DNA of 12,821 nt from a virus: the UHGV virus genome UHGV-0294068. One strand, 5' to 3'. The first letter of the stretch is position 1; the number at the start of each line of letters is the position of its first letter. This document shows, piece by piece, positions 2,861 through 12,288 of this stretch. Under the pieces are notes generated by a model. It saw only the letters and a list, made by a program, of their open reading frames with translations, ran no database searches and was not told the origin of the DNA. The position numbers were made by a program, and so were the translations under genes.

Positions 2861-3379
2861 TCACTCTCCTTTGATGCGAATGCCAGCGACGCGGGAATCA
2901 TTCCATCGCTTTACTTCTTCACGAATTACGTCAATGCATTCTTTCGAATCCATTAGGTAATCTTCATCAAAAAGACGTTCCTGTTCGTTTTCTATCGCAA
3001 CAATGATTGCTTCAACTAACTTTTGTGCCTGAGAACCACTTTCTAACTCTGCTATGCGCTTACTTCCATCCGCGATTACTCCCTCGTAATACTCACGCTG
3101 CTCGTTGAGTTTTAATTTTGCTGCCTCCAGTTCGTCCAGTAGTGCAATCACATCAGGGTCACTGTCATCAACTACTGTTACGCGTGATTTTTCATAATGC
3201 TCGTCGGCAAGTGTGCGACCAATTTTGAAATCTCCATCACCACCATAACCGGAGCAGGCATAAGTGACATGTGCTCCAGATATACGCTGTATTGACATTT
3301 CCTCGCCACAAACAGAGCATTCAGGTACTGGCTTAGGTGAATAACGTTCCCGTAGCGCCTGATAATCAATCTCGCTCAC
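2861..3379 (-). CDS. Hypothetical protein with N-terminal zinc-ribbon (CSVCG...YAC) and acidic central region (ELEAAKLKLNEQREYYE), possibly Ea22-like
   Basis: GTG start at 3379 six nt after a strong AAGGAGG RBS; 172 aa. Confidence 0.55.
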   Translation of the reverse strand: MSEIDYQALRERYSPKPVPECSVCGEEMSIQRISGAHVTYACSGYGGDGDFKIGRTLADEHYEKSRVTVVDDSDPDVIALLDELEAAKLKLNEQREYYEGVIADGSKRIAELESGSQAQKLVEAIIVAIENEQERLFDEDYLMDSKECIDVIREEVKRWNDSRVAGIRIKGE

Positions 3380-3860
3380 TGGTTGCCTCCTTCATAAAAA
3401 TAATCCAGTGGGTCTTGTCACCCTTTCCTGTTCGTTGACCGATAACAGGCTTTCTGTCGGTCAGTGCCAATATCTGGCGAACAGGTATTTGCGTTTCATT
3501 CCATTTAAAAATCAGAACGCCGTATGGCCACAACACACGAAAGGCTTCTTTGAATCCCTGCCGTAAATCATCACGCCAGGTATCTTTATTCAGCCGTCCA
3601 TATTTCTTTCCCATCCGAGCGTTATCACCAACACGCTCAAGATGCGGAGGGTCGAATACAACCATCGAAAAGGATGCGTCTGCAAATGGTAGTGCACGAA
3701 AATCAGCTATCAGGTCAGGACTGATAATCAGGCGTCGTCCATCACACAATGTGTGCTCTTCCTTTCTGATATCGCTAAATATCGCCCGGTCGTCATTCTT
3801 ATCGAACCAGAACATGCGACTGCCACAGCACATGTCGAGGATTGCTGCATGTCCAGTCAC
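3366..3860 (-). CDS. Small SAM-dependent DNA methyltransferase (orphan)
   Basis: Motif I-like DMCCGSRMF followed about 60 aa later by motif IV-like VVFDPPH. Start taken at GTG 3860 (AGGAGG 6 nt upstream, GTGA overlap with upstream stop); track start ATG 3893 is the alternative. No specificity domain evident. Confidence 0.65.
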   Translation of the reverse strand: MTGHAAILDMCCGSRMFWFDKNDDRAIFSDIRKEEHTLCDGRRLIISPDLIADFRALPFADASFSMVVFDPPHLERVGDNARMGKKYGRLNKDTWRDDLRQGFKEAFRVLWPYGVLIFKWNETQIPVRQILALTDRKPVIGQRTGKGDKTHWIIFMKEATSERD

Positions 3861-4384
3861 TGCTTGCCTCCTTTGCGAATCTGTTCCGCCCATTCTTCAA
3901 GGGATTTCTCCGCATATTCACCAGACAGGCCATCAATCGGATGCGCTTCATTAACCAACTCTTCTTTCGCTGACAAAATCATGCGTGTAACGTCGAAAAC
4001 TTCATGCAAAGACTTATTGATAAATCCGTGATTGAACGCAGCAGCAAGACGGCTGGCGGTATAGTTAATCCCCTCGTTGCGTGCTTCCGCACGAATTTCA
4101 GCCAGAAAAGCATCGGTAGCTGGGGTTTCTGGCATACAGTCAGCAGCGTCGAAATACTCTTCACTTTTGTCATCCCAAATCCAGCAATCATCTTTGATGA
4201 ACTTGTTCAGCCCTGCATTCTCCGCTGCCAGCGCATTAGCACGCACCAGTTGCACTTCCAGTTGCGTTGCCAAATCGCTGATCAGCTTTGCCACACTACG
4301 CATATCAACGGCACCACATTCTGCTTTCAGTTCCGAAGCCATCTCATGCCCGGCGGCAACTAACCCTTTGATATTACTTTCCAT
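3857..4384 (-). CDS. Hypothetical phage protein (175 aa)
   Basis: ATG 4384 with GAGGG RBS; acidic, helical-looking; no motif I recognise. Confidence 0.5.
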   Translation of the reverse strand: MESNIKGLVAAGHEMASELKAECGAVDMRSVAKLISDLATQLEVQLVRANALAAENAGLNKFIKDDCWIWDDKSEEYFDAADCMPETPATDAFLAEIRAEARNEGINYTASRLAAAFNHGFINKSLHEVFDVTRMILSAKEELVNEAHPIDGLSGEYAEKSLEEWAEQIRKGGKQ

Positions 4385-4430
4385 CTTTACCCTCGCTTAT
4401 CCACATAACTTATTGATTACATTGATAACT

Positions 4431-4463
4431 AAAAAGATCGTCGATTCATGCCGATCTATTTTT
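4431..4463 (-). terminator. Candidate intrinsic terminator at the 3' end of the HNH gene
   Basis: Plus-strand AAAAAGATCG-tcgattcatgc-CGATCTATTTTT; minus-strand RNA forms a stem followed by CUUUUU. Large loop, so weak call. Confidence 0.3.
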
Positions 4464-5054
4464 CATCAGTGATTCATAAAACTTTTGCCACTTATGCCGA
4501 CCGAAATTAGCCTTCGAGTTACAGCTCGAACAAAGGCAAATAAGGTTCTCCTGACGACAGTCTTGCTTGTCGTAATTGATGTGATGAGTTGTTAGCCTTT
4601 TGTCTGTTCCATCACAACCTGGGTTCTGACAAGTAAAACCATCTCGCTCAATAACCCTCTTGCTCGTTTCTCGGAAATCCCACGGATACGGCAATCTCGA
4701 TAATCCACCAGACCAGTTTGGATTTCCTTCCCCCTTCATCAGAGAAGAACGCATTATGTTGGAACACTGTTTCGAGCAGCATTTATGACGCTTCTCATGA
4801 CTCAAGAAAACGGAGAACGAAGATCCGCATACGCAGCATATTTTTAATACTCGCTTTAGTTCCCGATTTACCGTCTTGCCTCGCTGTGAAATTCCTACAC
4901 ACTGAAGTGAGCAGAACCTTGAAGATGAGTTGGCTCGCTTAACCTGATATTGCCTGCCACATACGGAGCAAACCTTTTCGATTTTCCCACCCTTCCAATT
5001 CGGGTTTTTATCACCGGATACAATCAATCCCGCAGCATTGGGCTTCTCGCTCAT
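4446..5054 (-). CDS. HNH endonuclease with duplicated zinc-binding modules
   Basis: HHINYDKQDCRQENLICLCSSCNSKAN HNH motif at the C-terminus; two NPNWKGG/NPNWSGG plus Cys-pair modules; ATG overlaps upstream stop (ATGA). Confidence 0.75.
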   Translation of the reverse strand: MSEKPNAAGLIVSGDKNPNWKGGKIEKVCSVCGRQYQVKRANSSSRFCSLQCVGISQRGKTVNRELKRVLKICCVCGSSFSVFLSHEKRHKCCSKQCSNIMRSSLMKGEGNPNWSGGLSRLPYPWDFRETSKRVIERDGFTCQNPGCDGTDKRLTTHHINYDKQDCRQENLICLCSSCNSKANFGRHKWQKFYESLMKNRSA

Positions 5055-10938: not shown

Positions 10939-10987
10939 CCACCACCGCGGCGCCACGCGCGCCGCACTGCAACCAAGAGAGGTATTT

Positions 10988-11236
10988 ATGAAAGGTGCAT
11001 TAGGTAAGAAGGAACTCCTGGCGGTGGTGCCACTGTCATGGAGCACTATCGACCGTATGGAGCGCGCAGGGGAATTTCCTAAACGCTGGTATATCACCGA
11101 TAAACGCTGCGCATGGAACCGTGACGAAGTTGAGCGTTGGCTTGATGAACGTCAGGCAGCAAGCCCGGCAGAGTTCCAGGGTAAAAAACCTCCTGTTCAG
11201 CAACGTGTATATCGTCCCGTGAGCAACGCTGCATGA
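10988..11236 (+). CDS. AlpA/excisionase-like HTH protein
   Basis: 82 aa; LSWSTIDRMERAGEFPKRWYITDKRCAWNRDEVERWL matches the AlpA/Xis-type HTH pattern; GAGAGG RBS. Confidence 0.7.
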   Translation: MKGALGKKELLAVVPLSWSTIDRMERAGEFPKRWYITDKRCAWNRDEVERWLDERQAASPAEFQGKKPPVQQRVYRPVSNAA

Positions 11237-11349
11237 GTGCGCTGCTAAGGCACTGGATCAAATGGTCAGGATGGTACTTATTCCTGGCCTCTGTTTCAGC
11301 ATGGCTTTATCTGCTGGCATTAATTTTCAGAGAGGGTTGGATTAAGTGA
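11233..11349 (+). CDS. Putative small membrane peptide (38 aa)
   Basis: ATG overlaps the excisionase-like stop (ATGA) and its stop overlaps the next start (GTGA); translation MSALLRHWIKWSGWYLFLASVSAWLYLLALIFREGWIK has one hydrophobic helix. Confidence 0.35.
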   Translation: MSALLRHWIKWSGWYLFLASVSAWLYLLALIFREGWIK

Positions 11350-11645
11350 GAAAGTTAAGCCGACTTGAAAAATACCACATGAATAAGGTTTCAATGCGCA
11401 GTCCGTCAAAGATTGTCGCCGTTACTCCTGCGGCGATAGAGATCGAAAAACGCGCGATTGAAAGAGAGAAAAAAGGGCAGTTCCGCATTGCCGCTCACCT
11501 TTGGCTTCAGTGTATGGATGTTGCTTCTGGTGATGTTGAACGTGCAAGGATCGCGGTTCGCAGGGACCAATGTATCACAAAAGGTAACGGCCTTCGCCGT
11601 GGCGACTATAGCGGCATAGGATGTTGTGGGGTGGTTTATGACTAA
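11346..11645 (+). CDS. PerC/ANR-like transcriptional regulator
   Basis: AIEREKKGQFRIAAHLWLQCMDVASGDVERARIAVRRDQC fits the PerC/Pch signature as I recall it (E..G.WRRAA.RW...ERA...YC). Start could be GTG 11346 or ATG 11379. Confidence 0.5.
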   Translation: MRKLSRLEKYHMNKVSMRSPSKIVAVTPAAIEIEKRAIEREKKGQFRIAAHLWLQCMDVASGDVERARIAVRRDQCITKGNGLRRGDYSGIGCCGVVYD

Positions 11646-12288
11646 GAAATACACACTAATCTATGCAGATCCACCCTGGGTATACCGGGACAAAGCCGCA
11701 GATGGTAATCGCGGTGCCGGTTTTAAATATCCAGTTATGAGTGTGCTGGATATCTGCCGCCTTCCTGTGTGGGATTTGACCGCTGAAAACTGTCTGTTGG
11801 CCATGTGGTGGGTGCCAACACAACCACTCGAAGCACTAAAAGTTGTTGAAGCCTGGGGATTCCGTCTGATGACGATGAAGGGCTTCACGTGGATAAAATG
11901 TGGTAGTCGACAACCAGATAAACTGGTTATGGGTATGGGACACATGACTCGCGCCAATAGTGAAGATTGCCTGTTTGCGGTAAAGGGAAAACTACCTACG
12001 CGCATTAATGCAGGGATCGTTCAGTCATTTACCGCACCGCGGCTTGAGCATTCAAGAAAGCCAGATATCGTTCGTGAAAAACTTGTGCAATTATTAGGCG
12101 ATGTTTCTCGCATTGAACTGTTCGCCCGCCAGACGTCTCATGGCTTTGATGTTTGGGGTAATCAGTGCGAAGACCCGGCAGTGCAACTACACCCTGGATA
12201 CGCGTTGGATATTGGCGGATTAACAAATGCATTCAGCAATGCTCCGCTGTCACCAACAGACATCCAGGGGCGGGAGCGTGCTGCATGA
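11638..12288 (+). CDS. MT-A70-type N6-adenine DNA methyltransferase (orphan)
   Basis: ATG 11638 after GGGGTGG; IYADPPW catalytic motif near the N-terminus; 216 aa. Confidence 0.8.
   Translation: MTKKYTLIYADPPWVYRDKAADGNRGAGFKYPVMSVLDICRLPVWDLTAENCLLAMWWVPTQPLEALKVVEAWGFRLMTMKGFTWIKCGSRQPDKLVMGMGHMTRANSEDCLFAVKGKLPTRINAGIVQSFTAPRLEHSRKPDIVREKLVQLLGDVSRIELFARQTSHGFDVWGNQCEDPAVQLHPGYALDIGGLTNAFSNAPLSPTDIQGRERAA

Follow-up and report, generated by a model that had tools for sequence, protein, structure and literature searches.

The window analysed here, a stretch of 12,821 nucleotides from the virus genome UHGV-0294068, belongs to one common temperate prophage of Escherichia coli. Two accessory methyltransferase genes, independent of each other, lie in it, each in a different early operon and neither with a nuclease partner. 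The first encodes a protein of the MT-A70 family and the second a small putative amino-methyltransferase of class I, the type dependent on S-adenosylmethionine (SAM); their coordinates, with those of the features around them, are collected in Table 1. Prophages are well known to carry orphan methyltransferases, and two on one prophage are a common finding; both genes here are already annotated by family. The MT-A70 gene belongs to a known kind, and the small enzyme to a widespread family for which no characterised member was found. On balance, and by a narrow preference, the best explanation of the pair is that the MT-A70 protein would be a DNA methylase acting on GATC, that the small enzyme would be a DNA amino-methylase and that both are orphans.

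Integrity, families and position of the two genes

The original prediction, drawn from the sequence alone, described two unrelated orphan DNA methyltransferases: an MT-A70-type open reading frame (ORF) with a DPPW motif in the early-left operon, and a small ORF with DMCCGS followed by DPPH in the nin block. Both ORFs are present as described. The MT-A70 protein matches Pfam MT-A70 (PF05063) over the full profile, positions 1-172 of 172, with E=4.2e-22 and 79.3 bits (cutoff 23.9), and phrog_359 at 5e-120; its DPPW is invariant across 20 diverse relatives, and its RefSeq copies are named "MT-A70 family methyltransferase". The small ORF has motif I before motif IV. An alternative ATG at 3893 would lengthen its product to 175 residues, and phrog_954 matches residues 10-173 of that form with E=2.7e-87; the GTG start overlaps the stop of the preceding gene (GTGA). 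For both ORFs the family matches are far beyond chance. An alignment of 32 diverse members of the small enzyme's family has 20 invariant residues, among them C12, D30, R32, D70-P-P-H73, E105, R108, K119 and W120, and the window protein keeps them all. Since every family-invariant residue is retained in both methyltransferases, both look functional.

The claim that the two are unrelated is borne out at the family level. BLASTP finds no similarity between them, hhalign gives a probability of 2.7% and aligns the DPPx stretch only, and the order of the motifs is opposite, motif IV coming first in the MT-A70 protein and motif I preceding motif IV in the small enzyme. Both families consist of Rossmann SAM enzymes with a motif IV of the amino-methylation type, and thus have a superfamily fold in common.

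The ORF list, the family assignments and an alignment to complete E. coli genomes place the window in the early region of a temperate prophage beside guaA. The closest genome match is strain DETEC-S566, with 98.8% identity across 84% of the window. A divergent pair of cI-like and cro-like genes defines both early operons. The minus strand holds replication genes (DnaT-like and P-like), DUF1064, HNH and Ead/Ea22-like genes, the small methyltransferase, further small ORFs and the small terminase subunit, while the plus strand holds a MarR-like gene, a RecE-like exonuclease, RecT, an AlpA-like gene, a PerC-family ORF, MT-A70 and DUF1382, with a convergent integrase at the end. The MT-A70 gene thus stands at the end of the leftward (plus-strand) block, adjoining int, and the small methyltransferase gene lies in the rightward block, downstream of the replication genes, a gene order consistent with the two operons named in the original prediction. 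Its wording "DNA methyltransferases" fared differently in its two halves: the assignment to methyltransferase families stands, and action on DNA is likely, though no more than that, for both enzymes; the closest studied relative of the MT-A70 protein has been reported as a ribosomal RNA (rRNA) enzyme.

The MT-A70 enzyme: GATC in DNA or 16S rRNA

Residues 1-187 of the MT-A70 protein are 83% identical to the methylase of the Stx2a phage P8983, of the M.EcoGV / M.EcoPA8orf6770P type. The gene of that type also occupies the int-proximal end of the leftward operon, with a DUF1382 gene downstream as in the window. According to the account of Fang et al. (2012) given in PMC10810198, the M.EcoGV type methylates GATC in vivo when overproduced. 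A second, more distant relative is HK639_35 (45% identity, E=2e-60), a type that differs by a 23-residue insertion relative to the window protein. HK639_35 was reported to be 75% identical to p32 of the Serratia phage BZS1, and the latter is a GATC DNA methylase by experiment, as in a dam- host it renders DNA resistant to MboI and sensitive to DpnI; M.EfaBMDam of Tn1549 is a further GATC enzyme of the same clade (PMC7556043). In BZS1 and HK639, as in the window, the methylase gene lies between the recombination genes and int.

These two relationships, together with the absence from the window of PNB-2, a protein discussed below, make adenine methylation of GATC in DNA the best-supported activity of the window MT-A70, one that we judge somewhat more probable than its contrary. 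The protein, placed in the phage/transposon clade of MT-A70 proteins, would methylate the N6 position of adenine in GATC, mimicking the host Dam, and would modify the phage DNA upon expression of the leftward operon. The window contains 48 GATC sites where 54 +/- 7 would be expected, and thus shows neither depletion nor enrichment.

Two lines of evidence weigh against a DNA substrate. Firstly, the closest solved relatives of the protein include adenine methyltransferases of both DNA (Tetrahymena MTA1) and mRNA (METTL3). Secondly, purified M.EcoPA8orf6770P alone has near-background activity on DNA in vitro (Gong et al., 2023, PMC10810198). With PNB-2, the product of the gene directly upstream, this enzyme forms a 1:1 complex that prefers RNA, namely 16S rRNA and 30S subunits, although the modified base was not identified there; its gene raises spontaneous induction and virulence (PMC10810198). 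The published substrates of the M.EcoGV / M.EcoPA8orf6770P type are therefore in conflict, GATC DNA on one side and 16S rRNA on the other. The original prediction held that an RNA methyltransferase would speak against it, and such an activity has indeed been reported for the closest relative; yet the same type methylates GATC when overproduced, and BZS1 p32 is a DNA methylase.

The window enzyme might accordingly be the catalytic subunit of a 16S rRNA methyltransferase, as in phiPA8, tuning induction in the lysogen, with the PerC-family ORF or another factor in the place of PNB-2. We regard this as rather unlikely. It draws on the 83% identity of the catalytic core to the phiPA8 / M.EcoGV type, on the published preference of the holoenzyme, on the fact that MT-A70 enzymes are often heteromeric and on the tight coupling of the PerC-family ORF to the methyltransferase gene. 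However, the window lacks PNB-2, described as essential if rRNA is to be targeted, as tblastn finds nothing for it there, and the base modified in rRNA was never pinned down (PMC10810198). The upstream gene of the M.EcoPA8orf6770P system encodes a winged-helix PNB-2 of 118 amino acids, carried by a Stx phage, whereas the window is not a Stx phage and has the PerC-family ORF in that position; the two upstream proteins do not align and are unrelated.

The C-terminus of the enzyme differs as well. The alignment with the Stx-phage methylase stops at residue 187, and the last 29 residues (188-216) form a tail unrelated to that of the type found in Shiga toxin-producing E. coli, whose C-terminal ~27 residues are the proposed docking region for PNB-2 (PMC10810198). 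The proposed docking surface is thus different in the window protein. The conserved nature of this alternative tail suggests a C-terminus under selection and possibly mosaic. Two observations on the tail may be added: it is conserved (12199-12285 in the window) in locus L149, whose core is only 80% identical, and its first part (VQL.PG.A.D) is nearer to the HK639-type tail than to the Stx type. As for PNB-2, an ORF encoding a similar winged-helix protein also occurs beside HK639-type MT-A70 genes (the L123 cluster and the HK639 locus, L286:9976-10401(-)); the BZS1 relative of the HK639 type methylates GATC DNA when cloned alone, which bears on the question of whether PNB-2 serves in general to target RNA.

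The association with the PerC-family ORF was followed in 5426 complete E. coli genomes. The cassette of PerC-family ORF and MT-A70 is found in 538 of them (10%), and the two genes are kept as a unit, each covered by at least 80%, in 514 of the 538. The overlap of 8 nucleotides between them is seen in nearly all of 80 near-identical loci from IMG/VR. Neither a promoter nor a plus-strand terminator was found between the AlpA-like gene and the PerC-family ORF, and the phiPA8 terminator sequence was not found there either. A sub-threshold match to the ANR family (AraC negative regulator; NCBIfam, 3.4e-05) is also obtained for the PerC-family ORF; a gene resembling a virulence regulator thus directly adjoins a methyltransferase gene in roughly 10% of the complete E. 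coli genomes.

Other loci break this association, and they count against a 16S rRNA enzyme in which the PerC-family ORF replaces PNB-2. In L063, L074 and L075 an MT-A70 protein 97-98% identical to that of the window, with an identical tail, follows a 367-residue protein with a DGQHR motif (DndB-like), with an overlap of 4 nucleotides, and in L149, with the same tail, no adjacent upstream ORF is present. These four loci rule out a fixed link between the window-type tail and the PerC-family ORF, and no obligate partner of the MT-A70 enzyme is evident from them. A DGQHR-domain protein is also listed beside the MT-A70 gene of the Salmonella phage SPN1S (hit H27). The wider idea that phage MT-A70 enzymes have a conserved upstream partner was rejected too: among 115 diverse phage loci, 54 have an abutting upstream ORF, and these fall into 42 unrelated clusters. 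Such tight packing is therefore no evidence of a complex and resembles the ordinary packing of phage genes. The MT-A70 protein may nevertheless be a modular catalytic subunit retargeted by whichever protein is encoded upstream, PerC-like here, PNB-2 in Stx phages and DGQHR elsewhere. Having the catalytic subunit without the PNB-2 reported to direct it to rRNA, the window offers a natural control for that subunit alone or with another neighbour.

The small enzyme: a conserved family and its putative substrate

The small enzyme has 6652 homologues at E<=1e-3 in a database clustered at 90%, and about 2000 clusters at 50% identity pass the same cutoff, of which 223 are found at E<=1e-30. Its identity across temperate phages of very different hosts, belonging to four bacterial phyla, is unusually high on the alignments made: 62.8% in Gordonia, 61.2% in Corynebacterium, 58% in Acinetobacter, 57% in Staphylococcus, 55% in Bacteroides, 51.6% over 96% of the length in ORF50 of the Listeria phage A118, and 47-51% in Streptococcus. 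Pfam gives a sub-threshold match to Methyltransf_11 only, the NCBIfam scan gave no match, and the RefSeq name is "class I SAM-dependent methyltransferase". The AlphaFold model (predicted local distance difference test, pLDDT, 90.2) is a bare, helix-poor Rossmann core; its 164 residues contain no added target-recognition domain. Fused domains in longer homologues were considered as a clue to function and none was informative. One metagenomic homologue (P0002, 294 residues) contains about 1.8 tandem copies of the methyltransferase in a single ORF.

DNA amino-methylation of short or relaxed specificity is the reading to which we incline, if only modestly, for this protein. The enzyme would methylate an exocyclic amino group (N6 of adenine or N4 of cytosine) of the replicating phage DNA, would need only a short or relaxed sequence and would share its expression with the genes for replication and those of the nin type. 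Several features are consistent with such an activity. The class I fold and the SAM-binding motif I are both present, and the invariant DPPH is a motif IV of the (D/N/S)PP(Y/F/W/H) type. A weak pointer is the placement of the gene, which is found consistently among early genes proximal to replication, in A118, VL4, IME1369_02 and enterobacterial prophages. A weak match links the half of the protein containing motif IV to the beta-class DNA methylase 2zie, and Pfam N6_N4_Mtase has weak, sub-threshold matches in 6 of the 32 members (best E 0.0012). With the beta-class N6/N4 DNA methylases (2zie, M.EcoGII) the small enzyme has in common a motif IV of the (D/S)PP(Y/F/H) type followed by a similar helix-strand region; it differs from them in the order of the motifs, which in that class is IV and then I, and in having no recognition domain.

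One named phage member of the family is A118 ORF50, which agrees with the window protein in size, in the DPPH and CCG motifs and in its early-gene position. Its record carries the note "methylates cytosine residues in DNA", which is annotation only, as no supporting experiment was found. More generally, the literature on A118, on prophage N4-cytosine enzymes and on the DPPH motif yielded no experiment on any member of the family. A further weak pointer to DNA is the existence of very small phage DNA methylases: PamA, of 141 residues and possibly of another family, methylates GATC by a DpnI assay; it has NPPY where the small enzyme has DPPH. A knockout of lmo2316, a putative member of the family at most, was reported without phenotype. 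The small enzyme was further compared with the family of the non-specific adenine methylase p25 of the Serratia phage OS31, and this identity was rejected because a different gene is involved: the IME1369_02 homologue cited for p25 is ARM67989.1, and that of the window protein is ARM68010.1.

Other results weigh against a DNA substrate. Pfam N6_N4_Mtase has no match to the window protein itself. In the PDB and among viral models, the nearest solved folds are generic class I enzymes or amino-methyltransferases of RNA and protein, not DNA methylases; those named are the RNA guanine-N2 enzymes Trm11, TrmN, Trm14 and RsmC, Bud23, and the protein methyltransferases PrmC, N6AMT1 and KMT9. These folds are in keeping with an alternative in which the small enzyme would not be a DNA methylase at all and would methylate a universally conserved host molecule, such as rRNA, tRNA, a translation factor or a small molecule. 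A universal host target would explain both the missing recognition domain and the high conservation across phages of distant hosts. The 47-63% identity across the phages listed above, the 20 invariant residues including DPPH and a RefSeq label no more specific than class I all fit such a target. Moreover, Trm11, TrmN, RsmC, PrmC and N6AMT1 have the same motif order and a motif of the (D/N)PP(F/Y) type. However, they are only 13-20% identical and carry either additional domains that bind RNA or protein or the partner Trm112, none of which is present here. We consider a non-DNA substrate of the small enzyme doubtful, and DNA amino-methylation is retained as the preferred activity.

The broader proposition that one enzyme or both would act on a substrate other than DNA, either because the MT-A70 protein is retargeted by its upstream protein or because the DPPH enzyme methylates a conserved host RNA or protein, appears to us improbable. 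If either case held, temperate phages would have a widespread means, so far unrecognised, of reprogramming the host. A DPPx motif is routinely taken as enough to call an orphan methyltransferase of a prophage a DNA methylase, and this locus shows that the label needs testing; for phage MT-A70 enzymes and for the minimal DPPH family alike, it provides a natural case in which to ask whether DNA or RNA is the substrate. The substrate of the small enzyme, once determined, would annotate thousands of phage genes.

Nuclease neighbours, prevalence and layout of the window

The original prediction recognised no adjacent cognate restriction enzyme, while pointing to an HNH and a PD-(D/E)XK-like nuclease nearby. 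Family scans confirm that these nuclease genes are real, and the orphan status of both methyltransferases is upheld. For the small methyltransferase, 80 IMG/VR loci carrying the gene (L205-L284) were collected and the neighbours within 2 kb clustered. They are mostly Ead/Ea22-like, replication and small unknown ORFs; no recurrent partner nuclease was found in the 80 loci, where one mobile-looking HNH-type cluster occurs in only 10.

A restriction-modification pair formed by one or both methyltransferases with a neighbouring nuclease would be suggested by proximity, as the HNH gene lies 586 bp from the small methyltransferase, and by the PD...ExK-like motif of the 177-residue ORF. The comparison of genomes makes it very improbable. 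DETEC-S566 lacks any counterpart to the segment 4449-5221, which comprises the HNH gene and the last part of the DUF1064 gene (773 bp in the window against 159 bp there); its prophage is otherwise collinear, 98-99% identical over the aligned blocks, and keeps the small methyltransferase; the window HNH gene is also absent from all 80 loci. Being an indel with respect to a collinear prophage that retains the methyltransferase, the HNH gene is not a restriction partner, and this distribution indicates that it is probably a mobile or homing endonuclease. The 177-residue ORF is present in just 3 of the 80 loci. Finally, the PD-(D/E)XK nuclease of the plus strand matches the C-terminal domain of exonuclease VIII and overlaps RecT, and on these family matches the RecE-like and RecT proteins constitute a recombination module and not a restriction system.

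The small methyltransferase gene was found in 943 of the 5426 complete E. coli genomes (17%). At least one IMG/VR prophage contig appears in the lists of both genes (L041 and L212), and an MT-A70 gene of the HK639/BZS1 type lies within 2 kb of the small methyltransferase in 10 of the 80 loci (e.g. L245), in varied arrangements, so that both families recur on the same phages. From the gene order, both genes belong to early operons and are expected to be repressed in the lysogen, so that comparing the methylomes of a lysogen and a cured strain might well show no difference even with two enzymes that act on DNA. Prophage methylases are typically silent in published methylomes. Protection against several host restriction systems, put forward in the original prediction, is speculation.

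Table 1. Features of the 12,821-nucleotide window (strand relative to the window as presented).
Feature	Coordinates	Strand	Remarks
177-aa ORF, phrog_9263/631	2044-2577	-	PD...ExK-like motif; variable cassette unlinked to small methyltransferase
Small class I SAM-dependent amino-methyltransferase (putative), 164 aa	3366-3860	-	GTG at 3860, TGA at 3366-3368
Motif IV of small enzyme, DPPH	3642-3653	-	all four residues invariant in 32 diverse homologues
Motif I of small enzyme (SAM-binding loop), DMCCGS	3819-3836	-	C12 invariant in family
HNH endonuclease	4446-5054	-	586 bp from small methyltransferase
cro-like gene	7462-7692	-	divergent from cI-like gene
cI-like repressor	7847-8431	+	divergent from cro-like gene; pair defines both early operons
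RecE-like nuclease (exonuclease VIII C-terminal domain, DUF3799 PD-(D/E)XK)	9239-10060	+	match to exonuclease VIII C-terminal domain, 6e-91
RecT-family single-strand annealing protein	10057-10938	+	start overlapped by RecE-like stop
PerC-family ORF	11394-11645	+	stop overlaps MT-A70 start by 8 nt; Pfam PerC 6e-07, above threshold
MT-A70 methyltransferase, 216 aa	11638-12288	+	ATG at 11638, TGA ending 12288
Catalytic motif IV of MT-A70, DPPW (D11-W14)	11668-11679	+	near N-terminus; permuted, beta-class-like order
DUF1382 ORF	12285-12479	+	ATG overlaps MT-A70 stop (ATGA); third gene of tight trio

With regard to the layout beyond the early operons, neither a Q-type antiterminator nor lysis genes are present between the nin-like block and the terminase genes (window 310-2047 and L001:1-3313), and in the related prophage L001 a tRNA-Arg gene lies directly past the terminase. 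This arrangement makes the organisation of the phage unlike that of classical lambda.

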